Source: Gemmata obscuriglobus (lineage in GTDB: Bacteria; Planctomycetota; Planctomycetia; Gemmatales; Gemmataceae). From it: DNA of 32,000 bases. Under the pieces are notes generated by a model. The model was not told the DNA's origin and did no database searches. It was given only the letters and a program-made list of their open reading frames with translations. The position numbers were made by a program, and so were the translations under genes. The stretch lies in the NCBI RefSeq assembly GCF_008065095.1, contig NZ_CP042911.1, positions 1,350,001 through 1,382,000 of the forward strand, read 5' to 3'. Shown one piece after another: positions 1 through 28,397 of the stretch (within the stretch, counting starts at the first letter, position 1; every line of letters begins with the position of its first letter).

Positions 1-226
1 TTGCCGCGGCGAGAAATGATCGCGAGTAGGATAGTTGCCGTAGTACCTCCACGGCCGGCGCCTCCTCGAACTCTCCAACCGCAACAACGTCTTGGAAGTC
101 CCGATCGTAGGCTTGCACCCCACATAAGTCGCGGAGAATGTCATCCTCGCTGTCGCGCCGTGGTCGGGTCAAGCCGATCCAAACGGAGACCACGCCATCT
201 TTGTCGAAGTAGTCGCTCCGCTCCAC
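1..226 (-). CDS. cassette protein, 3' end outside window; VSVWIG-type N-terminus reminiscent of polymorphic-toxin immunity (Imm22-like) proteins
   Basis: GTG at 226 with GGAG 8 nt upstream; frame open to window edge; normal acidic composition (VERSDYFDKDGVVSVWIGLTRPRRDSEDDILRDL...). Confidence 0.55.
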   Translation of the reverse strand, partial: MERSDYFDKDGVVSVWIGLTRPRRDSEDDILRDLCGVQAYDRDFQDVVAVGEFEEAPAVEVLRQLSYSRSFLAAA

Positions 227-242
227 ACACGTCACTCCGCTC

Positions 243-333
243 GCCGAACGAACAGCTCACCTGCACCGCCATCACCGGATGAGCGGTGCGTCCCGAATCA
301 GCGGGCGGTGTCAGGTGCAGCGCCGGGTTCGGC
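243..333 (-). repeat. attC: integron attC site
   Basis: R boxes GCCGAAC/GTTCGGC + bulged L stem; 91 bp; identical to 5659-5749. Confidence 0.85.
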
Positions 334-341
334 GCCTGCGG

Positions 342-680
342 CTAGAAAGGCAGGTCATCCGGTCCAGGCGGGGGCGTGACCTCGGCCGCCGGCTCGGACG
401 GCCCCGGCCCGAGTACCCGCACCGTCACCTCGTCTCCGGGGGCGAGCGGTGCGTGGGTCCACCGCATCTCCCCAGCCGCGTCGTCATGGGCGAACACGGC
501 CAGCACCAGCGACTCGCCCCCGTTGTCACCATCGTAGTCAGTGACCGGACGCAGCAGGCGCAATGGGGCGAGCCGGCAGTACTGCACTTGGGCGTTCAGG
601 CAGCCGTCGCCGGCCTGCCCGGCGAGGCACACCCGCCGACCGTTGACCAGCACCTCGAACCGCACCACCGCCTCCGCCAC
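342..680 (-). CDS. hypothetical cassette protein (112 aa)
   Basis: GTG start 5-6 nt after AGAGGG; own stop 8 nt before attC; identical copy 5758-6096. Confidence 0.65.
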   Translation of the reverse strand: MAEAVVRFEVLVNGRRVCLAGQAGDGCLNAQVQYCRLAPLRLLRPVTDYDGDNGGESLVLAVFAHDDAAGEMRWTHAPLAPGDEVTVRVLGPGPSEPAAEVTPPPGPDDLPF

Positions 681-697
681 ACCGGTGCCCTCTGCGT

Positions 698-787
698 GCC
701 GAACGAACAGCTCACCTGCACCGCCAGGATGAAGTGAGCATCACAACTGCGGCCGATGGCGGTGTCAGGTGCAGCGCCGGGTTCGGC
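698..787 (-). repeat. attC: integron attC site
   Basis: R boxes GCCGAAC/GTTCGGC + bulged L stem; 90 bp. Confidence 0.85.
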
Positions 788-1122
788 TTCTGCGCTGGCA
801 TGTGCGGTTCCGCGGAGCCCGCGCTTGCACCGCGCATCCGCGGAGCCACCACCGACCCGCACCACCATGCCGCGGCACACCGGGGGCCACCCACCACGGC
901 ACCGCGCGGCGATGAGCCGCGCCGCCCACCGACCGGTATCGGCGGAGCACCACCGATTCGACGCGCCGTGTCCCCACGCGCCTCCGCCCACGCCCAACCG
1001 CACCTCGCGGCGATGAGCCGCGCCAGACACGACCGGCACCACGCGGAGCACCACACGCGAGGTTCACCCATGCGGACCACACGCTCAGCGCCGCCGCACG
1101 CGCGCTCCAGAACGCGAGGGTG
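788..1122 (-). repeat. ORF-less R-type cassette (2 modules)
   Basis: C-rich/T-poor + strand, conserved head and tail, two cgcggcgaYgagccgcg hairpin modules; 335 bp. Confidence 0.7.
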
Positions 1123-1213
1123 GCCGAACAAATAGCTCACCTGCACCGCCATCATCGGATGAGCGGCGGGGTCCGAATCACATGGCGGTGTCAGGTGCAG
1201 CGCCGGGTTCGGC
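1123..1213 (-). repeat. attC: integron attC site
   Basis: R boxes + bulged L stem; 91 bp; identical to 3573-3663. Confidence 0.85.
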
Positions 1214-1480
1214 TTCTTGCGGCGCCTCTGCCAGACCGCGCATCTGGTATCGACGAGGCCCCTCGACGGTGACCGCGGCCCCGCCTTCGCAGATGACATG
1301 CGTGCCGTAGGCCGACTCGACAACCGTCAGCGACGGCACCGCGTCCAACCCGACAGCGGTAACGACGCACTCCTCGCCGGGTCGAAGGGCGACGCTGAAG
1401 TCGCTTGGGACGACCTCCACTAACCGGTCGGCCCCGCTGTCAGCGTCGTTGCACACACACAGGCGAACGACGAGGCTCAT
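1178..1480 (-). CDS. hypothetical cassette protein (100 aa)
   Basis: ATG at 1480, 18 nt from attC R box; no own stop, ends inside attC (tail AEPGAAPDTAM); identical copy 3628-3930. Confidence 0.65.
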   Translation of the reverse strand: MSLVVRLCVCNDADSGADRLVEVVPSDFSVALRPGEECVVTAVGLDAVPSLTVVESAYGTHVICEGGAAVTVEGPRRYQMRGLAEAPQEAEPGAAPDTAM

Positions 1481-1498
1481 CCGATGCGTCCCTCTGGT

Positions 1499-1589
1499 GC
1501 CGAACAATGAGCTCACCTGCACCGCCACCTCCAAGGGAGCGGTGCGTCCCACGTCAGATGGCGGTGTCAGGTGCAGCGCCGGGTTCGGC
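1499..1589 (-). repeat. attC: integron attC site
   Basis: R boxes + bulged L stem; 91 bp. Confidence 0.85.
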
Positions 1590-1596
1590 GCCTGGG

Positions 1597-3063: not shown

Positions 3064-3154
3064 GCCGAACAAACAGCTCACCTGCACCGCCATCATCGGA
3101 TGAGCGATGCGTCCCGAATCAGCCGGCGGTGTCAGGTGCAGCGCCGGGTTCGGC
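3064..3154 (-). repeat. attC: integron attC site
   Basis: R boxes + bulged L stem; 91 bp. Confidence 0.85.
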
Positions 3155-3556
3155 CTGCCTTGCGCCCTCCAGCAGTGACAGCGCCTTGCGGTTGTTGTAC
3201 GCCCGCGCGGACTCGAACGCCCGCTCGGTCGGGATCGCGCCGGCTGCCAGCAGCAGGGCGGTCAGCTCGGTGGACTCGTGCCCGGCCTCGTGGTTTGCTT
3301 GCCACGCAGCGTCGCTCTCGATGTCGATGGCGTGAACCAGTGGGGTCCAACCCGCGCCCACGTCACAGTTGATATCGGCCCCGGCTGCGATCAGCCGGCG
3401 TGCGATCTCCGTTCGTTGGTGCTCGATGGCTTGGAACAGCAGAGGCCAGTGCGGTTCGTCGGCCGCGTTGACATCGGCACCCGCCGCAATAATCGCTGCG
3501 ACTGTCGCGAGGTCATCGGCCCAGATGGCTTCCGACAGCCGTTGAGCCTTCGCCAC
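3119..3556 (-). CDS. ankyrin-repeat cassette protein (145 aa)
   Basis: repeats ...AAGADVNAADEPHWPLLFQAIEH... and ...AAGADINCDVGAGWTPLVHAI...; GTG start after AGAAGGG; ends in attC (AEPGAAPDTAG). Confidence 0.8.
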   Translation of the reverse strand: MAKAQRLSEAIWADDLATVAAIIAAGADVNAADEPHWPLLFQAIEHQRTEIARRLIAAGADINCDVGAGWTPLVHAIDIESDAAWQANHEAGHESTELTALLLAAGAIPTERAFESARAYNNRKALSLLEGARQAEPGAAPDTAG

Positions 3557-3572: not shown

Positions 3573-3663
3573 GCCGAACAAATAGCTCACCTGCACCGCC
3601 ATCATCGGATGAGCGGCGGGGTCCGAATCACATGGCGGTGTCAGGTGCAGCGCCGGGTTCGGC
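3573..3663 (-). repeat. attC: integron attC site
   Basis: R boxes + bulged L stem; 91 bp; identical to 1123-1213. Confidence 0.85.
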
Positions 3664-3948: not shown

Positions 3949-4047
3949 GCCGAACGCACAAGCTCAGCAGCCGGGGCCGCCGCGGTGAGCTATGAACTCC
4001 CAGAAACCAATGTGGCGGCCCCGGTCTGCTGCAGCGCCTGGTTCGGC
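3949..4047 (-). repeat. attC: integron attC site, divergent 99-bp variant
   Basis: same R boxes; L arms gctcagcagccggggccgcc / ggcggccccggTctgctgCagc changed compensatorily; bulged T and C kept. Confidence 0.8.
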
Positions 4048-4471: not shown

Positions 4472-4562
4472 GCCGAACATAAAGCTCACCTGCACCGCCA
4501 TCATACCGTCAGCAACGCGTCACAAATCAGCGGGCGGTGTCAGGTGCAGCGCCGGGTTCGGC
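4472..4562 (-). repeat. attC: integron attC site
   Basis: R boxes + bulged L stem; 91 bp. Confidence 0.85.
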
Positions 4563-5028: not shown

Positions 5029-5118
5029 GCCGAACAATGAGCTCACCTGCACCGCCCGTCTCGATGAGCAGTGCGTTCCGAATCAGCCGGCGGTGTCAGG
5101 TGCAGCGCCGGGTTCGGC
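5029..5118 (-). repeat. attC: integron attC site
   Basis: R boxes + bulged L stem; 90 bp; same as 18328-18417 except the R'-side spacer (aatga vs ataaa). Confidence 0.85.
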
Positions 5119-5658: not shown

Positions 5659-5749
5659 GCCGAACGAACAGCTCACCTGCACCGCCATCACCGGATGAGC
5701 GGTGCGTCCCGAATCAGCGGGCGGTGTCAGGTGCAGCGCCGGGTTCGGC
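5659..5749 (-). repeat. attC: integron attC site
   Basis: R boxes + bulged L stem; 91 bp; identical to 243-333. Confidence 0.85.
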
Positions 5750-5757
5750 GCCTGCGG

Positions 5758-6096
5758 CTAGAAAGGCAGGTCATCCGGTCCAGGCGGGGGCGTGACCTCG
5801 GCCGCCGGCTCGGACGGCCCCGGCCCGAGTACCCGCACCGTCACCTCGTCTCCGGGGGCGAGCGGTGCGTGGGTCCACCGCATCTCCCCAGCCGCGTCGT
5901 CATGGGCGAACACGGCCAGCACCAGCGACTCGCCCCCGTTGTCACCATCGTAGTCAGTGACCGGACGCAGCAGGCGCAATGGGGCGAGCCGGCAGTACTG
6001 CACTTGGGCGTTCAGGCAGCCGTCGCCGGCCTGCCCGGCGAGGCACACCCGCCGACCGTTGACCAGCACCTCGAACCGCACCACCGCCTCCGCCAC
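5758..6096 (-). CDS. hypothetical cassette protein (112 aa), second copy of 342-680
   Basis: translation identical to 342-680. Confidence 0.65.
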   Translation of the reverse strand: MAEAVVRFEVLVNGRRVCLAGQAGDGCLNAQVQYCRLAPLRLLRPVTDYDGDNGGESLVLAVFAHDDAAGEMRWTHAPLAPGDEVTVRVLGPGPSEPAAEVTPPPGPDDLPF

Positions 6097-6113
6097 ACCG
6101 GTGCCCTCTGCGT

Positions 6114-6203
6114 GCCGAACAACAAGCTCACCTGCACCGCCAGGATACAGTGAGCGACACAACTATGGCCGATGGCGGTGTCAGGTGCAGCGCCGGGTTC
6201 GGC
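6114..6203 (-). repeat. attC: integron attC site
   Basis: R boxes + bulged L stem; 90 bp; identical to 19289-19378. Confidence 0.85.
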
Positions 6204-6662
6204 TCACTGACCTCCGCGGTTCCGGGCGACACGCGCCGCACCGCGGCTCCGCGGAGCCCGTGCCACCGGTGCGGCCGGGCGGAGCACCCCCAACCCGATG
6301 CGCCGTGTCGCGACACATCGGAGGCCACCCACCACCGCCACCCGCGGCGATGAGCCGCGCCCGCCACCTACGGGCGCCACGCGGAGCACCACCGACACGA
6401 ACCGCCGTGTCCCCACCCGCGCCCGGCCACGCCCAACCACACCTCGCGGCGGCGAGCCGCGCCAGACCCGATCGGCACCACGCGGAGCGCCACCGAACCG
6501 ACACGCCGTGTCCGCACCCGCCACCGGCCGCGCCCACCGCACCTCGCGGCGACGAGCCGCGCCACACACCCACGGGCACCACGCGGAGCCCGACCCTCGG
6601 GATTCACCTTTGCGGACCATACGTTCAGCGCCGCCGCACGCGCGATCGAGCGCCTTGGGGTT
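6204..6662 (-). repeat. ORF-less R-type cassette (3 modules)
   Basis: three ~101-nt modules; hairpins e.g. 6394-6411 and 6445-6461; 459 bp; largely identical to 19379-19785. Confidence 0.7.
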
Positions 6663-6753
6663 GCCGAACGAACAGCTCACCTGCACCGCCATCACACGAT
6701 GAGCGGTGCGTCACAATACAGCGGGCGGTGTCAGGTGCAGCGCCGGGTTCGGC
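6663..6753 (-). repeat. attC: integron attC site
   Basis: R boxes + bulged L stem; 91 bp; same as 12681-12771 and 24567-24657. Confidence 0.85.
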
Positions 6754-7109
6754 TCGCTGCCGTCCGCGGTTCCGGGCGACACGCCGAGCGCCGCGCATCT
6801 GCGGATGCCCGCGGCACCGGTGCGACCGGGCGGAGTGCTACCGACTCGATGCGCCGTGTCCCGGCCCATCGAGGGCCACGCCCACCGCTACACGCGGCGA
6901 CGAGCCGCGCCCCTACCCACGGGCACCACGCGGAGCGCCACCGACCCGAACCGCCGTGTCCCCACACACCGCCGGCCACGCCCAACCGCACCTCGCGGCG
7001 ACGAGCCGCGCCAGCACCGACCGGCACCACGCGAAGCCCGACACGCGAGACTCACCACCGCGGACCACACGCTCAGCGCCGCCGCACGCGCCCTCATGCC
7101 CTCGGGGTT
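6754..7109 (-). repeat. ORF-less R-type cassette (2 modules), copy 1 of 3
   Basis: 356 bp; same cassette at 12772-13127 and 24658-25013. Confidence 0.7.
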
Positions 7110-7200
7110 GCCGAACGAACAGCTCACCTGCACCGCCCCCTCCCAGGGAGCGGTGCCATCCAGACTACATGGCGGTGTCAGGTGCAGCGCCGGGTTCGGC
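7110..7200 (-). repeat. attC: integron attC site
   Basis: R boxes + bulged L stem; 91 bp. Confidence 0.85.
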
Positions 7201-7535
7201 TTGCTCACATCCGCGCCGCGCATCCGCGGAAGCCCGCCTACCGGTGCGGCCGAGCGGAGCGGCACCGATCCGACGCGCCGTGCCGCGGCACGCCGGAGGC
7301 CACCCACCACCGCCACCCGCGGCGATGAGCCGCGCCCGACACCCACGGGCACCACGCGGAGCCACCACCGACCCGCACCGCCGTGTCCCCACGCGCTCCC
7401 GGCCGCGCCCAACCGCACCTCGCGGCGGCGAGCCGCGCCCGCCACCCACGGGCACCACGCGGAGCACTACACCCGGGGTTCACCAACGCGGACCACACGC
7501 CCACCGCCGCACGCGCGATCGTGCCCGCGATGGTT
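7201..7535 (-). repeat. ORF-less R-type cassette (2 modules)
   Basis: 335 bp; conserved head/tail and module hairpins; no credible ORF. Confidence 0.7.
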
Positions 7536-7626
7536 GCCGAACGAACAGCTCACCTGCACCGCCATCATACCGTCAGCGATGCGTCCCAGACTAGCGGGCG
7601 GTGTCAGGTGCAGCGCCGGGTTCGGC
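7536..7626 (-). repeat. attC: integron attC site
   Basis: R boxes + bulged L stem; 91 bp. Confidence 0.85.
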
Positions 7627-7984: not shown

Positions 7985-8075
7985 GCCGAACAACAAGCTC
8001 ACCTGCACCGCCACCATCGGATGAGCGATGCGTCACAAACTAGCGGGCGGTGTCAGGTGCAGCGCCGGGTTCGGC
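7985..8075 (-). repeat. attC: integron attC site
   Basis: R boxes + bulged L stem; 91 bp. Confidence 0.85.
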
Positions 8076-8432: not shown

Positions 8433-8523
8433 GCCGAACATAAAGCTCACCTGCACCGCCATCATCGGATCAGCGATGCGTTCCGAATCAGCCGGCGGTG
8501 TCAGGTGCAGCGCCGGGTTCGGC
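8433..8523 (-). repeat. attC: integron attC site
   Basis: R boxes + bulged L stem; 91 bp. Confidence 0.85.
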
Positions 8524-8950: not shown

Positions 8951-9041
8951 GCCGAACGAACAGCTCACCTGCACCGCCATCATCGGATGAGCGGTGCGTC
9001 CCGAATCAGCGGGCGGTGTCAGGTGCAGCGCCGGGTTCGGC
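8951..9041 (-). repeat. attC: integron attC site
   Basis: R boxes + bulged L stem; 91 bp. Confidence 0.85.
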
Positions 9042-9398: not shown

Positions 9399-9489
9399 GC
9401 CGAACAAAGAGCTCACCTGCACCGCCCTCACCGGATGAGCGGTGCGTCCCAAGTCAGCGGGCGGTGTCAGGTGCAGCGCCGGGTTCGGC
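9399..9489 (-). repeat. attC: integron attC site
   Basis: R boxes + bulged L stem; 91 bp. Confidence 0.85.
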
Positions 9490-9756: not shown

Positions 9757-9847
9757 GCCGAACGAACAGCTCACCTGCACCGCCATCACCGGATGAGCGG
9801 TGCGTCCCAAACCCGATGGCGGTGTCAGGTGCAGCGCCGGGTTCGGC
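9757..9847 (-). repeat. attC: integron attC site
   Basis: R boxes + bulged L stem; 91 bp; identical to 17803-17893. Confidence 0.85.
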
Positions 9848-10281: not shown

Positions 10282-10372
10282 GCCGAACATAAAGCTCACC
10301 TGCACCGCCATCACCGGATGAGCGGTGCGTCCCAGAACAGATGGCGGTGTCAGGTGCAGCGCCGGGTTCGGC
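10282..10372 (-). repeat. attC: integron attC site
   Basis: R boxes + bulged L stem; 91 bp. Confidence 0.85.
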
Positions 10373-10708: not shown

Positions 10709-10799
10709 GCCGAACATAAAGCTCACCTGCACCGCCATCACCCGATGAGCGATGCGTCACAACTCCGCGGGCGGTGTCAGGTGCAGCGCCGGGTTCGGC
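10709..10799 (-). repeat. attC: integron attC site
   Basis: R boxes + bulged L stem; 91 bp. Confidence 0.85.
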
Positions 10800-11152: not shown

Positions 11153-11243
11153 GCCGAACGAACAGCTCACCTGCACCGCCACAATGCAGGCCGCAATGCG
11201 TCCCAGATCCGATGGCGGTGTCAGGTGCAGCGCCGGGTTCGGC
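11153..11243 (-). repeat. attC: integron attC site
   Basis: R boxes + bulged L stem; 91 bp. Confidence 0.85.
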
Positions 11244-11782: not shown

Positions 11783-11873
11783 GCCGAACATAAAGCTCAC
11801 CTGCACCGCCATCACCGGATGAGCGGTGCGTCACAAGTCAGCGGGCGGTGTCAGGTGCAGCGCCGGGTTCGGC
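11783..11873 (-). repeat. attC: integron attC site
   Basis: R boxes + bulged L stem; 91 bp; identical to 24118-24208. Confidence 0.85.
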
Positions 11874-12231: not shown

Positions 12232-12322
12232 GCCGAACATAAAGCTCACCTGCACCGCCATGATACAGTGAGCGGTGCGTCCCGAATCAGATGGCGGTGT
12301 CAGGTGCAGCGCCGGGTTCGGC
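12232..12322 (-). repeat. attC: integron attC site
   Basis: R boxes + bulged L stem; 91 bp. Confidence 0.85.
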
Positions 12323-12680: not shown

Positions 12681-12771
12681 GCCGAACGAACAGCTCACCT
12701 GCACCGCCATCACACGATGAGCGGTGCGTCACAATACAGCGGGCGGTGTCAGGTGCAGCGCCGGGTTCGGC
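12681..12771 (-). repeat. attC: integron attC site
   Basis: R boxes + bulged L stem; 91 bp. Confidence 0.85.
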
Positions 12772-13127: not shown

Positions 13128-13218
13128 GCCGAACAACAAGCTCACCTGCACCGCCATGCCTCAGTTACCTTCGGGCTACGGACCAGATGGCGGTGTCAGG
13201 TGCAGCGCCGGGTTCGGC
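13128..13218 (-). repeat. attC: integron attC site
   Basis: R boxes + bulged L stem; 91 bp. Confidence 0.85.
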
Positions 13219-13323: not shown

Positions 13324-13662
13324 TTAAAGTCCGCGTAGGACATCCTCAATTGGGGCAACCTGAGTCTGATAGCCCAGGCGGTACGGGTCAAACGCAACAG
13401 TCTGGGCGATCTTGCGGACCTGCTGGAGCATGACCGCAAACGCGCCCGCGGTTGGTAGCTCGAAGACCTCGCTGACGGCCGCGTACTCGTCTCGGAACTG
13501 CTCTGCGGCCGCGCGGTCTGTGAAAACAGCTACGCCTGATGGCTTGTTCGGATCGCTGAGCGTCACAATGTCGTGGAAGGTTACATTCGGAACCGATAGG
13601 CTCACATCGGTGGTGGCTTCGCGTGCCACAAAGAACAGCGGATATTCCCACTCAAAAGCCAT
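13324..13662 (-). CDS. hypothetical cassette protein (112 aa) in an AT-richer cassette
   Basis: AAGGAG 7 nt upstream of ATG 13662; own stop followed by ~105-nt 3' spacer; local GC ~53-55%. Confidence 0.75.
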   Translation of the reverse strand: MAFEWEYPLFFVAREATTDVSLSVPNVTFHDIVTLSDPNKPSGVAVFTDRAAAEQFRDEYAAVSEVFELPTAGAFAVMLQQVRKIAQTVAFDPYRLGYQTQVAPIEDVLRGL

Positions 13663-13684
13663 CCGCGTTCTCCTTTGCTGCAGT

Positions 13685-13775
13685 GCCGAACATAAAGCTC
13701 ACCTGCACTGCCAGGATCGAGTGAGCAACACAACGCAGATCAGATGGCGGTGTCAGGTGCAGCGCCGGGTTCGGC
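13685..13775 (-). repeat. attC: integron attC site
   Basis: R boxes + bulged L stem; 91 bp. Confidence 0.85.
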
Positions 13776-13991
13776 GCCTCGAGTGTTCCTGACGACACGC
13801 CCGGCCGCGAAGCCACTCGCCCATGCCACGCGGGTTGCGATCAGTGGTGGCATGACGGCCGACACGGCCAGCACCATCAGCGCACCCAACGGCTGCTCGG
13901 ACGCGATCGACCCGGCTACCTGCATCCCGCCGAGCGTGATGAGCGCACCCATCACCACATGCAGGATCGTGAGCGCGGCTTTCTGGGACAC
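13740..13991 (-). CDS. small two-helix membrane cassette protein (83 aa)
   Basis: GGAGG 6 nt upstream of GTG 13991; hydrophobic stretches LTILHVVMGALITLGGMQVAG and LGALMVLAVSAVMPPLIA; ends in attC. Confidence 0.55.
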   Translation of the reverse strand: MSQKAALTILHVVMGALITLGGMQVAGSIASEQPLGALMVLAVSAVMPPLIATRVAWASGFAAGRVVRNTRGAEPGAAPDTAI

Positions 13992-14005: not shown

Positions 14006-14096
14006 GCCGAACAAATAGCTCACCTGCACCGCCAGGATCGAATGAGCAATACAACCCAGATCAGATGGCGGTGTCAGGTGCAGCGCCGGGTTCGGC
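14006..14096 (-). repeat. attC: integron attC site
   Basis: R boxes + bulged L stem; 91 bp; identical to 17383-17473. Confidence 0.85.
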
Positions 14097-14425: not shown

Positions 14426-14516
14426 GCCGAACAATAAGCTCACCTGCACCGCCATGATACAGTGAGCGACTCGTCCCGAATCAGGCGGCGGTGTCAGGTG
14501 CAGCGCCGGGTTCGGC
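14426..14516 (-). repeat. attC: integron attC site
   Basis: R boxes + bulged L stem; 91 bp. Confidence 0.85.
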
Positions 14517-14871: not shown

Positions 14872-14962
14872 GCCGAACAAACAGCTCACCTGCACCGCCA
14901 TCACCGGATGAGCGATGCGTCCCGAATCAGACGGCGGTGTCAGGTGCAGCGCCGGGTTCGGC
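14872..14962 (-). repeat. attC: integron attC site
   Basis: R boxes + bulged L stem; 91 bp. Confidence 0.85.
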
Positions 14963-15226: not shown

Positions 15227-15316
15227 GCCGAACAATTAGCTCACCTGCACCGCCATCATCGGATGAGCGGTGCGTCCCAATCAGCCGGCGGTGTCAGGTG
15301 CAGCGCCCGGTTCGGC
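15227..15316 (-). repeat. attC: integron attC site
   Basis: R boxes + bulged L stem; 90 bp; R''-side spacer gcccg instead of gccgg. Confidence 0.85.
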
Positions 15317-15895: not shown

Positions 15896-15985
15896 GCCGA
15901 ACAAATAGCTCACCGGCCGCGCACGCCGCGACACGGTCTACCGAGTGCGTAGTTTACAGCGGTCCGGTGCAGCGCCGGGTTCGGC
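15896..15985 (-). repeat. attC: integron attC site, L-box variant
   Basis: same R boxes; L arms gctcaccggccgc / gcggtccggtgcagc; central loop ccgcgacacggtc shared with 25014-25104. Confidence 0.8.
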
Positions 15986-15991: not shown

Positions 15992-16432
15992 TTACTCGGC
16001 AGGCGGCTCCCGCCCGGCCGCGACCTCGTCGATAGTGGCGTTGACCCGCCACGCTGCGTCCAAGTCGCAAGCTCGGAGCTGCGGCGGCACATGCCCCCGG
16101 CCGCGGATCCGGGCGACGAGCGCGTCGGGCAACCGCAGCCCGTGCCGCTCGACGTAGTGCGCCAGCGTGTGCGGCCAGAGCCACTCCCCATCCCACCGCC
16201 AGGTCGCATTGTCGGTCAGCGACTCGCCGCACAGCGAACATGGGCAGTAGCTCGGCTGCGTGGACCAGCACACCGGCGTCTGCCGCAGGTACTCCAGCAG
16301 TTCCGCTCGGTCCGCCACCTGCCAGGACGCATCGAGGAGACGACCGAGGGACGGGAACACATCGTCCTGCGTGGACTCCCAGCAGAAGAAGCCGAACCAT
16401 CGGTGGGGCCAGTCCCGCCACAGGTCTGCCAC
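15992..16432 (-). CDS. hypothetical Trp/Cys-rich cassette protein (146 aa)
   Basis: GTG 16432, 18 nt from attC, after AGAGGG; own stop. Confidence 0.7.
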   Translation of the reverse strand: MADLWRDWPHRWFGFFCWESTQDDVFPSLGRLLDASWQVADRAELLEYLRQTPVCWSTQPSYCPCSLCGESLTDNATWRWDGEWLWPHTLAHYVERHGLRLPDALVARIRGRGHVPPQLRACDLDAAWRVNATIDEVAAGREPPAE

Positions 16433-16449: not shown

Positions 16450-16540
16450 GCCGAACATAAAGCTCACCTGCACCGCCATCACACGATGAGCGGTGCGCCC
16501 CGGATCAGCGGGCGGTGTCAGGTGCAGCGCCGGGTTCGGC
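16450..16540 (-). repeat. attC: integron attC site
   Basis: R boxes + bulged L stem; 91 bp. Confidence 0.85.
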
Positions 16541-16877: not shown

Positions 16878-16968
16878 GCCGAACATAAAGCTCACCTGCC
16901 CGGCCACGTCACAGGGAGCAACGCCATCCAGACCGCGCGGCCGGGTCAGGTGCAGCGCCGGGTTCGGC
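16878..16968 (-). repeat. attC: integron attC site, L-box variant
   Basis: L arms cacctgcccggcc / ggccgggTcaggtg changed compensatorily; 91 bp. Confidence 0.8.
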
Positions 16969-17382: not shown

Positions 17383-17473
17383 GCCGAACAAATAGCTCAC
17401 CTGCACCGCCAGGATCGAATGAGCAATACAACCCAGATCAGATGGCGGTGTCAGGTGCAGCGCCGGGTTCGGC
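17383..17473 (-). repeat. attC: integron attC site
   Basis: R boxes + bulged L stem; 91 bp; identical to 14006-14096. Confidence 0.85.
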
Positions 17474-17802: not shown

Positions 17803-17893
17803 GCCGAACGAACAGCTCACCTGCACCGCCATCACCGGATGAGCGGTGCGTCCCAAACCCGATGGCGGTGTCAGGTGCAGCGCCGGGTTCGGC
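17803..17893 (-). repeat. attC: integron attC site
   Basis: R boxes + bulged L stem; 91 bp; identical to 9757-9847. Confidence 0.85.
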
Positions 17894-18327: not shown

Positions 18328-18417
18328 GCCGAACATAAAGCTCACCTGCACCGCCCGTCTCGATGAGCAGTGCGTTCCGAATCAGCCGGCGGTGTCAGGT
18401 GCAGCGCCGGGTTCGGC
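18328..18417 (-). repeat. attC: integron attC site
   Basis: R boxes + bulged L stem; 90 bp. Confidence 0.85.
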
Positions 18418-18912
18418 GTCTTGGCCAACTGCAACCGTGAACGCCGCGTGCATCTCCTCGGCCAAGTTCACCAGCGGACGCCATTGCTCCGGCCAGTCGG
18501 ACCACCATTGGAACCGCCATCCGGAGTACAAGTCCCCGTTCACCGCTAACTCGTACAACGTGCCGTCGGCCCCGCCGTACCCGCTCAAGTCCGGGCAAAG
18601 CGGGAGGGTGAGGGCGGTGACACGCTCGAAGTACGCGGCGACTGCGGTCGACGGCAGCGGCACCACGTCGTGCCCGGTCACCAACAGCGCCGGCTCCGAC
18701 GAGACGACCCGCGGCCGGATCAGTTGCCACTCCTGGCCGCGCTGGGCACCCCACACCTGCCGCACGTCCCACACTGACGGCATCTCGAACGACGGGGAGA
18801 CAATGAGCTGCAGCCGCCGCATACCGATGCCGCGTGCGTGCGGGTCGCTGTACGCTGGTCGCGGCTGGGTGCGAACCCGCGCCCAGTCGGCCTCGTCGGC
18901 CTGCCGCAGCAT
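18382..18912 (-). CDS. hypothetical cassette protein (176 aa), intact copy of pseudogene 5083-5613
   Basis: ATG 18912 (an alternative GTG at 18939 follows GAGGG); uninterrupted frame; ends in attC (AEPGAAPDTAG). Confidence 0.65.
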   Translation of the reverse strand: MLRQADEADWARVRTQPRPAYSDPHARGIGMRRLQLIVSPSFEMPSVWDVRQVWGAQRGQEWQLIRPRVVSSEPALLVTGHDVVPLPSTAVAAYFERVTALTLPLCPDLSGYGGADGTLYELAVNGDLYSGWRFQWWSDWPEQWRPLVNLAEEMHAAFTVAVGQDAEPGAAPDTAG

Positions 18913-18957
18913 TAGCTCTCGCGCCCGGCGATTCCCCACCCGTCGTGCCCTCTGGTT

Positions 18958-19049
18958 GCCGAACAATGAAGCTCACCTGCACCGCCATCACCCGATGAGC
19001 GATGCGTCCCCAATCAGCTGGCGGTGTCAGGTGCAGCGCCGGGTTCGGC
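18958..19049 (-). repeat. attC: integron attC site
   Basis: R boxes + bulged L stem; 92 bp (6-nt R'-side spacer aatgaa). Confidence 0.85.
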
Positions 19050-19288: not shown

Positions 19289-19378
19289 GCCGAACAACAA
19301 GCTCACCTGCACCGCCAGGATACAGTGAGCGACACAACTATGGCCGATGGCGGTGTCAGGTGCAGCGCCGGGTTCGGC
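19289..19378 (-). repeat. attC: integron attC site
   Basis: R boxes + bulged L stem; 90 bp; identical to 6114-6203. Confidence 0.85.
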
Positions 19379-19833: not shown

Positions 19834-19924
19834 GCCGAACAAACAGCTCACCTGCACCGCCATGATGCAGGATGCGGTGCGTCGCAGTTCAGCGGGCGGT
19901 GTCAGGTGCAGCGCCGGGTTCGGC
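19834..19924 (-). repeat. attC: integron attC site
   Basis: R boxes + bulged L stem; 91 bp. Confidence 0.85.
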
Positions 19925-20360: not shown

Positions 20361-20450
20361 GCCGAACGAACAGCTCACCTGCACCGCCCCTCCAAGGGAG
20401 CGGTGCGTCCCGAATCCGCGGGCGGTGTCAGGTGCAGCGCCGGGTTCGGC
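20361..20450 (-). repeat. attC: integron attC site
   Basis: R boxes + bulged L stem; 90 bp. Confidence 0.85.
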
Positions 20451-20786: not shown

Positions 20787-20877
20787 GCCGAACATAAAGC
20801 TCACCTGCACCGCCATCATACAGTGAGCAACAGAACGCAGATTCGATGGCGGTGTCAGGTGCAGCGCCGGGTTCGGC
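20787..20877 (-). repeat. attC: integron attC site
   Basis: R boxes + bulged L stem; 91 bp. Confidence 0.85.
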
Positions 20878-21233: not shown

Positions 21234-21324
21234 GCCGAACGAACAGCTCACCTGCACCGCCATCATCGGATGAGCGATGCGTCCCGGAACAGCGGGCGGT
21301 GTCAGGTGCAGCGCCGGGTTCGGC
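21234..21324 (-). repeat. attC: integron attC site
   Basis: R boxes + bulged L stem; 91 bp. Confidence 0.85.
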
Positions 21325-21682: not shown

Positions 21683-21773
21683 GCCGAACATTGAGCTCAC
21701 CTGCACCGCGCCCTCCAAGGGAGCGATGCCATCCAAACTACATGGCGGTGTCAGGTGCAGCGCCGGGTTCGGC
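21683..21773 (-). repeat. attC: integron attC site
   Basis: R boxes + bulged L stem; 91 bp. Confidence 0.85.
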
Positions 21774-22172: not shown

Positions 22173-22263
22173 GCCGAACATAAAGCTCACCTGCACCGCC
22201 ATGATGCAGGATGCGGTGAGTCCCGAATCAGCGGGCGGTGTCAGGTGCAGCGCCGGGTTCGGC
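22173..22263 (-). repeat. attC: integron attC site
   Basis: R boxes + bulged L stem; 91 bp. Confidence 0.85.
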
Positions 22264-22821
22264 CTCTTGTGTGTCGATGACGCCCTCGGTCGGGTGATAC
22301 GCATACCGGCCAGATTCTAGGGCTGTTGCGTACTGCTCCAACCACGCGGCAAACCCACTGGCAACCACCCGCACGGGTCCAACCTCGTGATCGAACCAAA
22401 TGATCTGCCCAACCTTCCCACCCGGTGCGGGGTCCAAATCGACACAGAAGTGATTGCCCGACCCCGCATCGGTGACCGGGAGCCACTGTGAGTTCCAGTG
22501 GACTGGCTTGATTGGCCCTTCTGGTTCGGAACCCATTTCTGCGAACCAACCCTCAGCCGCCACTTCTTGCCATCGTAACCACTCGCCTTCGATGGCCTGA
22601 ATCGTCGCTAGCGCACCGCCACCATGTGGGAACATCCACAAGCCCCAGCTCCCATCGTGGACTTTGTACGACTGCTCCATCTCCGGCGGAAGTCGAAGGC
22701 CGGTCGCGTCCTCCAAGTGGTTGATGTGACGGTTCGATGCTGCTGGTCGAATACCCGCTAGTTCTTCCGGCGCATGTTGTTGGAGCCACGCTTCGATTCT
22801 TCTCCACGCCGCCTCTACCAC
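22228..22821 (-). CDS. SMI1/KNR4 (SUKH) family cassette protein (197 aa)
   Basis: WRRIEAWLQQHAPE...LRLPPEMEQSYKVHDG...GNHFCVDLDP...GQIIWFDHE pattern typical of SMI1/KNR4; GTG 22821; ends in attC. Confidence 0.8.
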   Translation of the reverse strand: MVEAAWRRIEAWLQQHAPEELAGIRPAASNRHINHLEDATGLRLPPEMEQSYKVHDGSWGLWMFPHGGGALATIQAIEGEWLRWQEVAAEGWFAEMGSEPEGPIKPVHWNSQWLPVTDAGSGNHFCVDLDPAPGGKVGQIIWFDHEVGPVRVVASGFAAWLEQYATALESGRYAYHPTEGVIDTQEAEPGAAPDTAR

Positions 22822-22837
22822 CGCGCGCCCTCGGGTT

Positions 22838-22928
22838 GCCGAACGAACAGCTCACCTGCACCGCCATCACCGGATGAGCGATGCGTCCCAGAACAGATGG
22901 CGGTGTTAGGTGCAGCGCCGGGTTCGGC
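22838..22928 (-). repeat. attC: integron attC site
   Basis: R boxes + bulged L stem (ggtgttaggtg variant); 91 bp. Confidence 0.85.
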
Positions 22929-23344: not shown

Positions 23345-23435
23345 GCCGAACATAAAGCTCACCTGCACCGCGACGTCCCGAGCCGCGATGCGTCCCGAAT
23401 CAGCGGGCGGTGTCAGGTGCAGCGCCGGGTTCGGC
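23345..23435 (-). repeat. attC: integron attC site
   Basis: R boxes + bulged L stem; 91 bp. Confidence 0.85.
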
Positions 23436-23670: not shown

Positions 23671-23761
23671 GCCGAACATGAAGCTCACCTGCACCGCCAC
23701 CACCGGATGAGCGGTGCGTCCCGAATCCGCGGGCGGTGTCAGGTGCAGCGCCGGGTTCGGC
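23671..23761 (-). repeat. attC: integron attC site
   Basis: R boxes + bulged L stem; 91 bp. Confidence 0.85.
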
Positions 23762-24117: not shown

Positions 24118-24208
24118 GCCGAACATAAAGCTCACCTGCACCGCCATCACCGGATGAGCGGTGCGTCACAAGTCAGCGGGCGGTGTCAGGTGCAGCGCCG
24201 GGTTCGGC
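24118..24208 (-). repeat. attC: integron attC site
   Basis: R boxes + bulged L stem; 91 bp; identical to 11783-11873. Confidence 0.85.
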
Positions 24209-24566
24209 TCGCACGCCTCCGCGGTTCCGGGCGACACGCCCCGCGCCGCGCATCCGCGGAAGCCCGCCCACCGTCGCATCCGCGGAGCCACCACCGACAC
24301 CCCCCACCGTGTCGCGGCACACCGAGGGCCACCCACCACCGCACCTCGCGGCGATGAGCCGCGCCGACCACCCACGCGCACCACGCGGAGCACCACCCAC
24401 CCGCATCACCGTGCCGCCGCACACCGGAGGCCACGACCAACCGCACCTCGCGGCGATGAGCCGCGCCCGTCGCACTCGGGCACCACGCGGAGCCCGACCC
24501 GCGGGGTTCACCCACGCGGACCACACCGTCAGCGCTGCCGCACCCGCGATCGAGCGCCTCGGGGTT
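24209..24566 (-). repeat. ORF-less R-type cassette (2 modules)
   Basis: 358 bp; head identical to 11874-~11948. Confidence 0.7.
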
Positions 24567-24657
24567 GCCGAACGAACAGCTCACCTGCACCGCCATCACA
24601 CGATGAGCGGTGCGTCACAATACAGCGGGCGGTGTCAGGTGCAGCGCCGGGTTCGGC
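24567..24657 (-). repeat. attC: integron attC site
   Basis: R boxes + bulged L stem; 91 bp. Confidence 0.85.
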
Positions 24658-25013
24658 TCGCTGCCGTCCGCGGTTCCGGGCGACACGCCGAGCGCCGCGC
24701 ATCTGCGGATGCCCGCGGCACCGGTGCGACCGGGCGGAGTGCTACCGACTCGATGCGCCGTGTCCCGGCCCATCGAGGGCCACGCCCACCGCTACACGCG
24801 GCGACGAGCCGCGCCCCTACCCACGGGCACCACGCGGAGCGCCACCGACCCGAACCGCCGTGTCCCCACACACCGCCGGCCACGCCCAACCGCACCTCGC
24901 GGCGACGAGCCGCGCCAGCACCGACCGGCACCACGCGAAGCCCGACACGCGAGACTCACCACCGCGGACCACACGCTCAGCGCCGCCGCACGCGCCCTCA
25001 TGCCCTCGGGGTT
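24658..25013 (-). repeat. ORF-less R-type cassette (2 modules), copy 3 of 3
   Basis: 356 bp; same as 6754-7109. Confidence 0.7.
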
Positions 25014-25104
25014 GCCGAACGAACAGCTCACCTGCCGCGGGGCACCGCGACACGGTCCAGAAACAACGCACTATACCGCGGTCAGGTGCAGCGCCGGGTT
25101 CGGC
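25014..25104 (-). repeat. attC: integron attC site, L-box variant
   Basis: L arms gctcacctgccgcgg / ccgcggtcaggtgcagc; loop gcaccgcgacacggtc; 91 bp. Confidence 0.8.
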
Positions 25105-25108
25105 TCGC

Positions 25109-25477
25109 TCACCCGGGCATCCAGTCGGCAACGCCCTCGCGGACGGCCCACTCGGCGGCGGTATACCCGAACTCGGACCGGATGTTCGCTCGCGCCCCGG
25201 CCCGCACCAGCACCGCCACCATCGGCCGGTCCAGAAGCCGGAGTGCGACGTGCAACGGGGTGTCACCCATGTCCCCAGTCGCGTCCACGTCCGCCCCGGC
25301 CGCGATTAGGACGGCCGCACCGGCCGCGTCCCGCCGCCAGGCCAAGACGTGCAGCGGGGTGTCACCGTCTGCCCCATGACTGTCGAGGGCGACGGCACGC
25401 TCGCCCGATTCGGCCGGGAACAGAACGTCGGACACCGATGCCAGAACCTCCGCCACGGCTCGTGGTGCCGACTCCAC
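25109..25477 (-). CDS. ankyrin-repeat cassette protein (122 aa)
   Basis: DGDTPLHVLAWRRDAAGAAVLIAAGADVDATGDMGDTPLHVALRLLDRPMVAVLVRAGA; GTG 25477 8 nt after AGAGGG (start uncertain). Confidence 0.75.
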   Translation of the reverse strand: MESAPRAVAEVLASVSDVLFPAESGERAVALDSHGADGDTPLHVLAWRRDAAGAAVLIAAGADVDATGDMGDTPLHVALRLLDRPMVAVLVRAGARANIRSEFGYTAAEWAVREGVADWMPG

Positions 25478-25495
25478 TCCGTGTGCCCTCTGGTT

Positions 25496-25586
25496 GCCGA
25501 ACAAAGAGCTCACCTGCACCGCCACCATCGGATGAGCGGTGCGTCCCAAGTCAGCCGGCGGTGTCAGGTGCAGCGCCGGGTTCGGC
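25496..25586 (-). repeat. attC: integron attC site
   Basis: R boxes + bulged L stem; 91 bp. Confidence 0.85.
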
Positions 25587-25593: not shown

Positions 25594-25971
25594 TCAGCGC
25601 GGTCGGCGCATGACGACGAGAGTGCGTCCTCCGCTCGCGGTGTCCAAGCTCACGACCAGTTGAGCGTAGGCCGGGGCGCCCTGCAGCCGTACTTCTTCGA
25701 TCACTGTGCCGTCGTCGTCCTGTGCCCGACAGATCATCGACCCACCTGGCCCGAGACATGAACCGCCGGCAAGGGATTTGCGGTATGGTCCCGGCAATCG
25801 GGGCGGGGCCACGACCTCCCACCCATCGTATCCGGCCACGACGGCTTCCAGGGAGACGAACGGTCGCTCCTGTCGTGTGGCCGATTCCGCGTGCCGGCCC
25901 CAGGGTGACAGCCAATAACCGGCACACCCCGCACCGAGTAACACGACGACCACAAGCCACCGCACCCGCAT
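25594..25971 (-). CDS. putative exported protein or lipoprotein cassette protein (125 aa)
   Basis: MRVRWLVVVVLLGAGC signal-like N-terminus with Cys; ATG 25971 with GGAAGGGGG upstream; own stop. Confidence 0.7.
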   Translation of the reverse strand: MRVRWLVVVVLLGAGCAGYWLSPWGRHAESATRQERPFVSLEAVVAGYDGWEVVAPPRLPGPYRKSLAGGSCLGPGGSMICRAQDDDGTVIEEVRLQGAPAYAQLVVSLDTASGGRTLVVMRRPR

Positions 25972-25988
25972 CCGATCCCCCTTCCGGT

Positions 25989-26079
25989 GCCGAACGTAAA
26001 GCTCACCTGCACCGCCATCGCCGAGTGAGCGGTGCGTTCCAAGTCAGCGGGCGGTGTCAGGTGCAGCGCCGGGTTCGGC
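25989..26079 (-). repeat. attC: integron attC site
   Basis: R boxes + bulged L stem; 91 bp. Confidence 0.85.
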
Positions 26080-26412
26080 TCGCTCACGTCCGCGCCGCGC
26101 ATCCGCGGATGCCCGCGCCACCGATGCGGCCACGCGGAGCACCGCCGACCCGGAGCACCGTGTCGCCGCACGTCGGAGGCCACCCACCACCCCCACTCGC
26201 GGCGACGAGCCGCGCCGACCACCGACCGGTGTTGGCGGAGCGCAACCGACCCGAACCGCCGTGTCCCCACCCGCCGCCCGCCACGCCCAACCGCACCTCG
26301 CGGCGACGAGCCGCGCCCGCGCCCACCGGCACTCTGCGGAGCCCGACGCGCGGGGTTCACCCACGCGGACCACACGCACACCGCCGCACGGGCGCTCCAG
26401 CACGCGAGGGTT
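26080..26412 (-). repeat. ORF-less R-type cassette (2 modules)
   Basis: 333 bp; first ~100 nt the same as 26931-~27030. Confidence 0.7.
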
Positions 26413-26503
26413 GCCGAACAACAAGCTCACCTGCACCGCCATCACCGGATGAGCAGTGCGTCCCAAGTCAGCCGGCGATGTCAGGTGCAGCGCCGGGTTC
26501 GGC
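26413..26503 (-). repeat. attC: integron attC site
   Basis: R boxes + bulged L stem (ggcgatgtcaggtg variant); 91 bp. Confidence 0.85.
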
Positions 26504-26840
26504 TTCGTCGCTGGCCGTTGCGGTTCCGCGGAGCCCGCGCTCGTACCGCGCATCCGCGGAGCCACCACCGACCCGCACCACCGTGTCCCGGCCCACCGAG
26601 GGCCACCCACCACCGCACCTCGCGGCGATGAGCCGCGCCGACCACCGGCGGGCGCCACGCGGAGCACCACCGACCCGAACCGCCGTGTCCCCACGTGCCG
26701 CCAGCCACGACCACCCGCCACTCGCGGCGGCGAGCCGCGCCAGACCCGATCGGCACCACGCGGAGCCCGACCCGCGGGGCTCACCCACGCGGACCACACG
26801 CCCACCGCCGCCGCACGCGCGATCAAGCGCCCTTCTGGGT
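26504..26840 (-). repeat. ORF-less R-type cassette (2 modules)
   Basis: 337 bp; conserved head/tail and module hairpins. Confidence 0.7.
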
Positions 26841-26930
26841 GCCGAACATGCAGCTCACCTGCACTGCCAGGATGAAGTGAGCATGACAACGGTGGCCGAT
26901 GGCGGTGTCAGGTGCAGCGCCGGGTTCGGC
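26841..26930 (-). repeat. attC: integron attC site
   Basis: R boxes + bulged L stem; 90 bp. Confidence 0.85.
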
Positions 26931-27264
26931 TCGCTCACGTCCGCGCCGCGCATCCGCGGATGCCCGCGCCACCGATGCGGCCACGCGGAGCACCGCCGAC
27001 CCGGAGCACCGTGTCGCCGCACGTCGGAGGCCACACACCACCGACACCTCGCGGCGATGAGCCGCGCCGACAACCGACCGTATCGGCGGAGCACCACCGA
27101 TCCGACCCACCGTGTCCCACGGCACCACCGGCCACGCCCACCGCACGCTCGCGGCGGTGAGCCGCGCCACACACCCACGGGCACCACGCGGAGCCCGACG
27201 CGCGGGGTTCACCCACGCGGACCACACGCCCACCGCCGCACGCGCCCTCATGCGCGCGAGGGTT
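26931..27264 (-). repeat. ORF-less R-type cassette (2 modules), first cassette next to attI
   Basis: 334 bp; bounded by attC 26841-26930 and the lone GCCGAAC at 27265-27271. Confidence 0.7.
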
Positions 27265-27410
27265 GCCGAACCAGTGTTTAGTGTGCGACGCTTCGCACAA
27301 TAACACGGGATCATTTCGCCGGCGCGCGACACACGCGCCGGACCGAACGCGATATCGCTACTACAGTTGTCGCACAAAACCCGTCTTCACAATATGCGCA
27401 ATAACAAGGT
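27265..27410 (-). other. attI: candidate attI recombination site and cassette-promoter region
   Basis: Last GCCGAAC (minus strand GTTCGGC) has no partner arm. On minus strand ACTAAAC-ACTG-GTTCGGC resembles an L-spacer-R simple site. Repeats: gcacaataaca (27295) and gcgcaataaca (27396). AT-richer than surroundings. Confidence 0.55.
27319..27341 (-). terminator. GC-rich hairpin between the intI stop and the first cassette (possible terminator or attenuator)
   Basis: ccggcgcg-cgacaca-cgcgccgg: 8-bp perfect stem, 7-nt loop; no U-tract. Confidence 0.3.
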
Positions 27411-27428
27411 AACGGGTCCGTGCGAAAC

Positions 27429-28397
27429 TTACAACCCGTCGAGCGGGCTCGTGACCCCGCGACCGCCTTTGTTGAGCACGTGAGTGTAAATCATGGTCGT
27501 CTCGACGCTCTCGTGCCCCAATAGCTCCTGAACGGTCCGGATGTCCGTACCCGATTCGATCAGGTGGGTCGCGAAGCTGTGCCGGAAGCTGTGGCTGGTC
27601 ACCCGCTTGTCCACCCCAGCGTCCCGCACCGCGTCCGCCAGCACCCGGTTCATCCCGGACTCGTGTAGGTGGTGCCGGCGCGCCGCCCCGGACCGCGGGT
27701 CCACCGAGAGCCGGTGCGCCGGGAACACGTACTGCCACGCCCACGCCGTCGGTGCCGCCGGGTTCTTTGCCGCGAACGCCTTCGGAACATACACCGCCCC
27801 CAGCCCGTTCGCCAGGTCCTCCTGGTGCAATTTTCGCACGTCCGCCAGGTGCCACTCCAGCAGGCCCCGGCACACCTGCGGCAGCATCGTCCGCCGGTCC
27901 TTGTCGCCCTTGCCCCCGCGGACCACGAGCTGGTTCAGGTCCCACTCCACGTCCTTCACCCGCAGCCGCAGGCACTCCAGCAGGCGCAGCCCCGAGCCGT
28001 ACTGGATCAGAGCCACCAGCCGGTGCACGCCCTCCAGTTCCGCGAGCACCGCGCGGACCTCGTCCCGCGACATCACCACCGGCAGCCGCACCCGCCGGTG
28101 CGCCCGCACAACCATCAGCTCGTTCAGCGGCCGCTCCAGAACCACCGCGTACAGAAACAGCAGCGCGCACAGGGCCTGGTTCTGGGTGGACGCGGCCACG
28201 TTGCGGGTCACCGCCAGGTCGGTCAGGAACGCGTTCACCTCGGGCTCGCCCATCCGGTCCGGGTGCTTGATCCCGTGAAACCGAATAAACCGCTCCGCCC
28301 AATCGTGGTACGCGTCCTCGGTGCGGATGCTGTAGTGCCGTACCCGGCATGCGTGCCGAACTCGGTCGAGCAATTTGGGCGGTTGGGCGTCAGACAT
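27429..28397 (-). CDS. intI: integron integrase IntI (tyrosine recombinase, 322 aa)
   Basis: Catalytic motifs [20 protein letters not shown] and [15 protein letters not shown]. IntI-specific insert [31 protein letters not shown]. Adjacent to the attC array. Confidence 0.93.

Follow-up and report, generated by a model that had tools for sequence, protein, structure and literature searches.

Which way does an integron run when its integrase gene points toward its own cassettes, and is such an element still at work? The question is raised by a 32,000-nucleotide (nt) stretch of the Gemmata obscuriglobus chromosome (contig NZ_CP042911.1, positions 1,350,001 to 1,382,000; hereafter the window), the minus strand of which carries the integron integrase gene intI and, beyond its stop codon, a long series of near-identical palindromes. 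The window very probably spans the platform of a reverse (inverted-integrase) sedentary chromosomal integron, along with its first 57 cassettes. The parts of this integron follow one another on a single strand, in the order presumed integrase promoter (P_intI), intI, a 158-nt attI and an array totaling 79 attC sites. Sequence comparisons indicate that this large element of reverse orientation is apparently active.

The recombinase gene is intact, spans 27429-28397 on the minus strand and encodes 322 amino acids (aa), ending in a TAA stop codon (27431-27429) that faces the first cassette. Its product scored 427 bits with the TIGR02249 profile, the cutoff of which is 265, and contains the Pfam domains Phage_int_SAM_4 and Phage_integrase. 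It aligned end to end with VchIntIA (PDB 2A3V; E = 3e-84), without a gap through the IntI-specific segment (approximately residues 200-245), and the catalytic residues were located at R138, K163, H269, R272, H295 and Y304. Models for XerC, XerD and XerA scored far under their own cutoffs on the same product.

The palindromes were recovered in three ways. The motif GGCGGTGTCAGGTGCAGC occurred 54 times at three or fewer mismatches, always on the + strand, while shuffled sequences gave 0.19. Pairing of exact GCCGAAC...GTTCGGC boxes delimited 57 sites, 90-92 nt in length apart from one of 99 nt. A covariance model (R1) built from the window's own attC sites recovered the same 57, all on the minus (that is, top) strand. 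Beyond intI, the sole R1 match (30699-30730) scored 12 bits with E = 0.57 and was regarded as chance. One extra exact GCCGAAC box, at 16391-16397, lies 59 nt from attC 23 inside the open reading frame (ORF) of cassette C24; it has no partner and probably also arose by chance.

All sites found with R1 lie on the minus strand. Sites 1 to 10 are at 26841-26930 (85.7 bits), 26413-26503, 25989-26079, 25496-25586, 25014-25104, 24567-24657, 24118-24208, 23671-23761, 23345-23435 and 22838-22928; sites 11 to 20 at 22173-22263, 21683-21773, 21234-21324, 20787-20877, 20361-20450, 19834-19924, 19289-19378, 18958-19049, 18328-18417 and 17803-17893; and sites 21 to 30 at 17383-17473, 16878-16968, 16450-16540, 15896-15985, 15227-15316, 14872-14962, 14426-14516, 14006-14096, 13685-13775 and 13128-13218. 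Farther from intI, sites 31 to 40 occupy 12681-12771, 12232-12322, 11783-11873, 11153-11243, 10709-10799, 10282-10372, 9757-9847, 9399-9489, 8951-9041 and 8433-8523; sites 41 to 50 occupy 7985-8075, 7536-7626, 7110-7200, 6663-6753, 6114-6203, 5659-5749, 5029-5118, 4472-4562, 3949-4047 and 3573-3663; and sites 51 to 57 occupy 3064-3154, 2462-2552, 1967-2056, 1499-1589, 1123-1213, 698-787 and 243-333.

Folded as single-stranded DNA, the + strand of these sites forms a 7-bp R box, an unpaired central spacer of 5x5 nt, an L stem of 3 + 6 + 7 bp and a variable terminal loop. An unpaired C and an unpaired T, each located on the 3' side of the + strand hairpin (its 3' arm), interrupt the L stem. Among 48 distinct sites the stem was 99.2% paired, with compensatory double changes at six pairs; no column shuffle matched the observed values, and shifted pairings dropped to 26-45% paired. 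This set shows no variation in the R box, in the outer L stem or at either unpaired base, and very little in the remainder of the L stem. Four divergent sites (attC 5, 22, 24 and the 99-nt attC 49, starting at 25014, 16878, 15896 and 3949, respectively), identified by R1, folding and covariation, have altered stem sequences, with compensatory changes in the first three, and retain the two unpaired bases at their usual positions.

A generic repeated extragenic palindrome beside a Xer-type recombinase might be imagined instead, given that the R boxes are symmetric and their sequence alone conveys no polarity. The far superior fit of the recombinase to TIGR02249 than to the XerC and XerD models, together with its IntI-specific segment, speaks against this, as do the occurrence of exactly one repeat after each ORF and the survival of the unpaired bases and spacer through compensatory stem changes. 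Moreover, R1 detected attC arrays adjoining intI in unrelated taxa, and the probability left to a non-integron origin is negligible. An earlier note on this DNA had described the recombinase as an intI on the minus strand, with its stop codon facing first attI and then the cassettes, and had counted 57 attC sites of one orientation with two conserved unpaired bases always in the 3' arm of the + strand. Each of these points was borne out, and the IntI-specific insert that the note had named as the feature to look for is present in the gap-free VchIntIA alignment.

Cassettes and intI are co-directional on the minus strand. This is established by the extrahelical bases of attC, by the periodicity and Pfam matches of the ORFs, by the boundaries of duplicated cassettes and by the point in attI at which homology with Gemmata algarum breaks off. 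The established attC model, as exemplified by attC_aadA7, places the extrahelical bases on the bottom strand, in its 3' (double-prime) arm. On this model, the position of the unpaired C and T identifies the window's + strand as the bottom, recombinogenic strand and leaves minus as the cassette sense strand.

The array occupies 1-27270 on the minus strand, as delimited by box pairs, ORFs and R1, and contains 57 complete cassettes that average 474 bp, from C01 (26847-27270) to C57 (249-703). Cassette 58 (1-248) is incomplete, its coding part at 1-242 being cut by the window edge. Credible ORFs were found in 33 cassettes, all on the minus strand and starting 15-59 nt past the crossover (most at 22-29 nt), with GC contents of ~0.7, 0.5 and 0.85 at successive codon positions (GC1>GC2<<GC3). 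Six ORFs matched Pfam families over threshold. They encode ankyrin repeats in C05 (25109-25477; Ank_2, E = 4.5e-13) and C51 (3119-3556; Ank), SMI1/KNR4 (SUKH-1) proteins in C11 (22228-22821; E = 2.8e-16) and C40 (8529-8933), a homolog of ribosomal protein S21 in C35 (10846-11100; E = 3.9e-11) and a DUF1877 protein in C52 (2560-3048; E = 6.5e-31). Identical copies of the C40 gene occur farther down the array and in a second array, which is described below. The Pfam search assigned no family to the genes flanking the integron or to most cassette ORFs. A second S21-family gene, equal in length to the C35 ORF, is located further down the array, at 13587-13841 of the recovered locus L089.

Unrelated coding cassettes share a leader, TTCGGC(A/C)(A/C)C..GGAGG/AGAGGG, within their first 30 nt (e.g., 25478-25501 and 22822-22843). 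In most of them a Shine-Dalgarno-like GGAGG or AGAGGG is found at +10 to +16, and the start codon follows at +22 to +29. At the opposite end, 12 of the 28 distinct credible ORFs (e.g., 22228-22821, 18382-18939 and 3119-3556) extend into their own attC, ending in the attC-encoded tail AEPGAAPDTAx; attC supplies a stop codon in two of three frames, and the third, open frame is used by no ORF. On the + strand, ORFs of 380-545 aa cross several cassettes and attC sites (e.g., 25722-27281, 5957-7594 and 24161-25309). These are artefacts, because stop codons are scarce in sequence that is C-rich and 75% GC, and because the gene-less cassettes that they cross lack codon periodicity on either strand. 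In genome annotation, long + strand ORFs over GC-rich cassettes should be treated in this way.

Seven pairs of duplicate cassettes, in five groups (C06=C31=C44, C20=C37, C21=C28, C46=C57 and C50=C55), are 100% identical over their full length, including the 3' attC, and stand among unrelated neighbors. The identical stretch opens at G|TTCGGC; immediately before it, the 5-nt spacer between L' and R' of the upstream attC is not the same from copy to copy. Such boundaries are those predicted by recombination at the R' box of a top strand that is the minus strand, and they suggest that the mobile unit is an ORF plus its downstream attC on the minus strand. The polarity proposed in the earlier note, with + as the recombinogenic and minus as the sense strand, is thus backed by four independent lines that agree. 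Its count of at least 58 cassettes running off the window also stood, whereas its statement that all credible ORFs are on minus, each with its attC, proved correct for 33 cassettes and glossed over the 24 of 57 that have no ORF.

The duplicates also bear on whether the element is active. A fossil array, in which a real intI and real attC sites are inactive and repeats persist through homologous recombination or unequal crossing-over between near-identical attC sites, would draw on ample substrate for RecA-mediated duplication, since the sites are near-identical over ~55 nt. It would also accommodate insertion sequence (IS) insertions, a truncated last attC, the 42% of cassettes without genes and C47, a copy of C19 with four differences, one of which makes a premature stop. 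Nevertheless, single cassettes have been duplicated with 100% identity into unrelated neighborhoods and into the second array 3.85 Mb away. Because the neighborhoods are unrelated and the upstream L'-R' spacer differs between copies, site-specific movement of one cassette at a time fits better than segmental unequal crossing-over. The integrase gene is itself intact and, compared with the G. algarum ortholog (95% nucleotide identity), differs at 48 codons, 41 of them synonymously and seven non-synonymously, which indicates that intI is under purifying selection. A fossil array is therefore quite unlikely.

The attI region (27265-27428, minus strand), recognized by G. algarum homology and conserved blocks, fills the interval from the intI stop codon to the first cassette. 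Its R box, GTTCGGC (GCCGAAC on the + strand; 27265-27271), is a lone box without a partner and marks the insertion point; the first cassette begins TTCGGC, and the crossover, G|TTCGGC, falls between G27271 and T27270, 158 nt from the stop codon. Homology with G. algarum JC673 (locus L001) runs through intI and the spacer and ends exactly at 27265. Conserved features were defined by alignment with both attI copies of JC673 and by comparison, by eye and with BLAST, with G. algarum JC717 and the second G. obscuriglobus array. Block A, AAGTTTCGCACGGACCCGTTACCTTGTTATTGCGCATATTGTGAAGAC (27383-27430, minus strand), comes directly after the intI stop (...CGCACGGnCCCGTTACCnTGTTATTGCGCATATTGTGAAGAC), hardly varies between the window and the two G. 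algarum copies, and is kept in the second array (L087), which lacks intI. It is a candidate for IntI accessory sites and/or the cassette promoter (Pc). Block B, CCGTGTTAnTGTGCGAAGCnTCGCACACTAAACACTG|GTTCGGC, is conserved in the aligned attI copies. Between the two blocks, a GC hairpin, CCGGCGCG-n7-CGCGCCGG, was read from the sequence at 27317-27343 (minus strand), and attI_2-type sites have a hairpin of different sequence in the same place. This hairpin was ruled out as a classical terminator, as it lacks a U-tract. The direct repeats GTTATTG(C/T)GC and the pair ACTAAAC/GTTCGGC in attI are features that we take to resemble the DR1/DR2 and L/R sites of attI1.

By analogy with classical integrons, IntI would insert cassettes at G|TTCGGC of attI through bottom-strand exchange followed by replication, and would excise them by attC x attC recombination. 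The same enzyme would act in trans on the second array at 2.79 Mb, which consists of an attI and 20 attC sites.

Whether the co-directional layout is peculiar to this strain was addressed with the 80 genome loci whose IntI proteins are the closest, all turned so that intI is on the + strand and then searched with R1. Sites lay downstream of intI on the + strand, the inverted arrangement, in 10 of the 80 loci: five from planctomycetes (L003, L006, L007, L018 and L044), three from Acidobacteria (L014, L049 and L060), one from an acidimicrobiian (L032) and one labeled as a delta proteobacterium (L035). The classical arrangement, with attC upstream of intI on the - strand, was found in 18 of 80, nearly all Proteobacteria. 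In a neighbor-joining tree of 81 sequences, drawn without support values, the window's IntI fell in a planctomycete clade, beside which branches an Acidobacteria-rich clade that includes one acidimicrobiian locus; in both clades every member with detectable attC sites is inverted.

The co-directional order might alternatively have arisen in a classical divergent integron whose intI was recently flipped by local inversion, as an accident of the strain. One such case is documented, in the class 1 integron of Acinetobacter baumannii 1656-2 (PMC4889954), and the array contains IS elements and adjoins an upstream flank that is not conserved with G. algarum. Against a recent flip, G. algarum JC673 and JC717 share the order of intI stop followed by attI, homology is continuous over the intI-attI junction, and in the ten related loci, of planctomycete, acidobacterial and a few other origins, the attC sites follow intI and run in its direction. 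A local flip is accordingly very improbable. The inverted layout is the norm in this lineage and rare overall, and the architecture is already known: reverse integrons have been reported in Treponema denticola, A. baumannii, Chlorobium phaeobacteroides and the planctomycete Blastopirellula marina (PMC6557892), and the inverted integron-integrase group has been discussed (PMC3575428) and found to be paraphyletic (PMC4889954). The earlier note, which had confined the arrangement to a minority of lineages, was right as to its overall rarity; among planctomycete and acidobacterial relatives it is the rule rather than an oddity. The comparison with inverted integrases that the note had suggested placed IntI with the inverted planctomycete loci, next to the inverted Acidobacteria-rich clade, in a tree that covers the window and its closest IntI relatives and leaves out T. 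denticola, Chlorobium and B. marina. In the library that was searched, no paper connected G. obscuriglobus or Gemmata with attC sites or reported an integron there.

Several observations count against the reverse-integron reading. The first extrahelical base of attC is C, where the usual base is G. The upstream flank of intI shows no conservation with G. algarum past ~66 nt, from which it follows that the locus has probably been moved or rearranged. No sigma-70-type promoter was detected in 27272-27428 or in 19 kb of the array with a tool that does not cover planctomycete promoter rules. Finally, 24 of the 57 cassettes encode nothing, and some of the array may therefore be something other than 'adaptive cargo'.

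The promoter question is tied to the layout itself. Upstream of intI, a non-coding stretch of ~1.2 kb (28398-29600) with 55-65% GC and no codon periodicity presumably contains P_intI. It includes a perfect 17-nt inverted repeat (28531-28547 and 28698-28714), and the sigma-70-like matches near intI are confined to 28871-28921 within it; as noted above, this flank is not conserved in G. algarum. Cassettes might be expressed by read-through from this integrase promoter with no separate Pc, so that expression of the integrase and of the first cassette would be coupled. The co-direction of intI and cassettes, the short interval of 158 nt from stop codon to crossover and a spacer in which neither a sigma-70-like promoter nor a U-tract terminator was detected are all in keeping with read-through, to which we give somewhat less than even chances. 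However, nothing of the attI segment, block A and hairpin included, has been lost from the intI-less array at 2.79 Mb, and therefore any signals required by this array must be local. A conserved GC hairpin also separates the intI stop from the crossover, and constitutive expression of an integrase is, as a matter of general knowledge, costly. Because the intI-less array keeps the whole segment, a cassette promoter inside the conserved ~170-nt attI segment is mildly favored over pure read-through from intI.

The extent of the integron was established on the complete G. obscuriglobus chromosome (CP025958.1; 8,998,893 bp), where IntI is encoded at 6,641,959-6,642,927 and the window appears as its reverse complement; the same array is present in the 2008 draft (ABGO01000017.1). 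The array was followed with window cassette proteins as queries, and the recovered loci were searched with R1. Past window position 1 there are 22 more attC sites, bringing the total to 79 over ~39 kb (~6.642-6.682 Mb). The array is chromosomal, has more than 20 cassettes and is built on highly similar attC sites, as sedentary integrons are, in agreement with the large sedentary chromosomal integron that had been proposed from the window. In its distal part an IS3-family element is inserted in a cassette leader (L089 11880-13443), and the last attC is truncated and adjoins an IS110-family transposase gene (L089 17058-18700), followed by cobW. The position of this transposase gene is reminiscent of the attC-targeting IS1111-attC group. 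The GC skew of the flanks, ~0 to +0.02, is too weak to place the bottom strands on the leading-strand template.

A second array, 3.85 Mb away, contains 20 attC sites of the same type (L087 9820-20140; CP025958.1, ~2,790,600-2,800,900), with no intI detected within 10 kb. It opens with a 170-nt attI that is 80% identical to that of the window, and its first cassette is one of the three copies of the SUKH cassette C40. Orthology links this orphan attI, together with the preceding ~245 bp, to G. algarum attI_2, and the window's attI to attI_1. In G. algarum the order is intI, attI_1 with a mutated box (GTGCGGC), 245 bp, attI_2 and cassettes. The tandem attI sites are located at L001 10970-11560 in JC673 and L085 10970-11534 in JC717, and both draft contigs end at or just past the second attI crossover. 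The simplest reading is that an ancestral platform with two tandem attI sites was split by rearrangement in G. obscuriglobus.

The second array resembles a cluster of attC sites lacking integron-integrases (CALIN; Cury et al. 2016, PMC4889954) in having 20 sites of one type and no nearby intI. Unlike a CALIN, it opens with a well-conserved attI homologous to G. algarum attI_2. Because it is headed by such a site, it has the appearance of a portion of the integron that became detached and can still accept insertions, and not of a cluster in decay.

Cassettes without genes make up 24 of the 57 in the window (~42%), and 23 of them form one homology cluster, the least expected feature of the element; C09 is divergent and shares only a leader and a tail with the others. 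These minus-strand cassettes, identified by homology and lack of periodicity, are C01-C03 (25995-27270; also by alignment and their 101-102-nt units), C06-C08 with the divergent C09 (23351-25019), C13-C17 (19295-21688), among which C16 and C17 have three tandem units, C23 (16456-16883), C31-C33 (11789-13133), C36 (10288-10714), C39 (8957-9404), C41-C45 (6120-8438) and C56 (704-1128). Members open with a leader and close with a tail and a normal attC; in between are two or three tandem units of 101-102 nt, each of which contains an invariant hairpin, CGCGGC-TCRYC-GCCGCG, and other invariant blocks. The family is 77% GC with a G-rich top strand, and has a median pairwise identity of 80%, long invariant blocks and a few identical copies. 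There are at least 38 copies genome-wide, every one bounded by attC and together ~40% of both arrays, including five in the distal array and 10 of the 19 cassettes of the second array. The first cassette of G. algarum JC673 begins with the leader of this family.

Several roles for the family were considered. A protein-coding role was rejected, as GC periodicity is absent in every frame, there is no complete ORF and paralogs differ by 1-nt indels. A structured RNA was rejected as well, since RNAalifold on 39 units found no compensatory pair. Folding z-scores were unremarkable (-0.97 for the top strand and +0.13 for the bottom), and a search of the whole window against Rfam gave nothing at the gathering threshold and only a chance miRNA match in E-value mode. 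No sigma-70-like promoter match was found in the family when 19 kb of array was scanned, although sigma-70 rules are uninformative for planctomycetes. G-quadruplex propensity was moderate (G4Hunter mean 0.43, best 25-nt window 1.47). Outside Gemmata, the family was absent from the other 79 IntI loci, and a scan of JGI metagenomes with a 24-nt unit motif returned two chance matches inside genes and no family copy. The family may act as a promoter or an insulator or as a module for protein binding, or it may consist of selfish non-coding cassettes. It is tentatively proposed, as a rather doubtful possibility, that these cassettes are a distinct functional class (promoters of a non-sigma-70 type, insulators, or modules that bind protein or RNA and organize expression or recombination of very long arrays) or a self-propagating non-coding parasite, and that the whole constitutes a 'split integron' in which one IntI serves two attI-led arrays 3.85 Mb apart.

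Comparison with known systems places these features in context. Like the reverse integrons of T. denticola (Coleman et al. 2004), C. phaeobacteroides and B. marina, the last from the same phylum, the Gemmata element has intI co-directional with the cassettes, attI downstream of intI and a long chromosomal array that includes ORF-less cassettes. The T. denticola array reportedly contains ~45 cassettes. The Gemmata element differs from these in its genus, its 70% GC and its own 91-nt attC type with C and T as extrahelical bases, as well as in its 79 attC sites, its second intI-less array with an attI of its own and the single gene-less family that accounts for ~40% of its cassettes. It shares with the Vibrio cholerae superintegron, the attC sites of which are the V. 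cholerae repeats (VCR), a sedentary chromosomal location, many cassettes, near-identical attC sites, duplicated cassettes, mostly small ORFs of unassigned function and some gene-less cassettes. In Vibrio, by contrast, intI and the cassettes diverge, Pc is located in the intI/attI region and faces away from intI, and gene-less cassettes are a small minority that do not form one paralogous family; V. cholerae N16961 has nine (bioRxiv 10.1101/2023.11.21.568050). ORF-less cassettes with promoter activity have been described in Treponema (PMC6557892) and Vibrionaceae (bioRxiv 10.1101/2023.11.21.568050). Those of Gemmata are likewise interspersed among coding cassettes in a long array; unlike the described examples, they belong to a single family with internal 101-102-nt repeats, 77% GC and no sigma-70-like match.

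The architecture itself is not new, and what the Gemmata integron adds is its size, its split organization with two attI sites and its dominant gene-less cassette family. It is a very large reverse integron from beyond the spirochaetes, well resolved in a complete genome, and its host is culturable. To our knowledge, mechanistic work on integrons has been carried out almost entirely on divergent platforms (class 1 and Vibrio), and the regulation of Pc, P_intI and attI in a co-directional layout is essentially unstudied. In this respect, the Gemmata element offers for comparison two natural attI contexts, one with intI upstream and one with none. Its gene-less family bears on the purpose of ORF-less cassettes and on the selfish spread of cassettes inside arrays.

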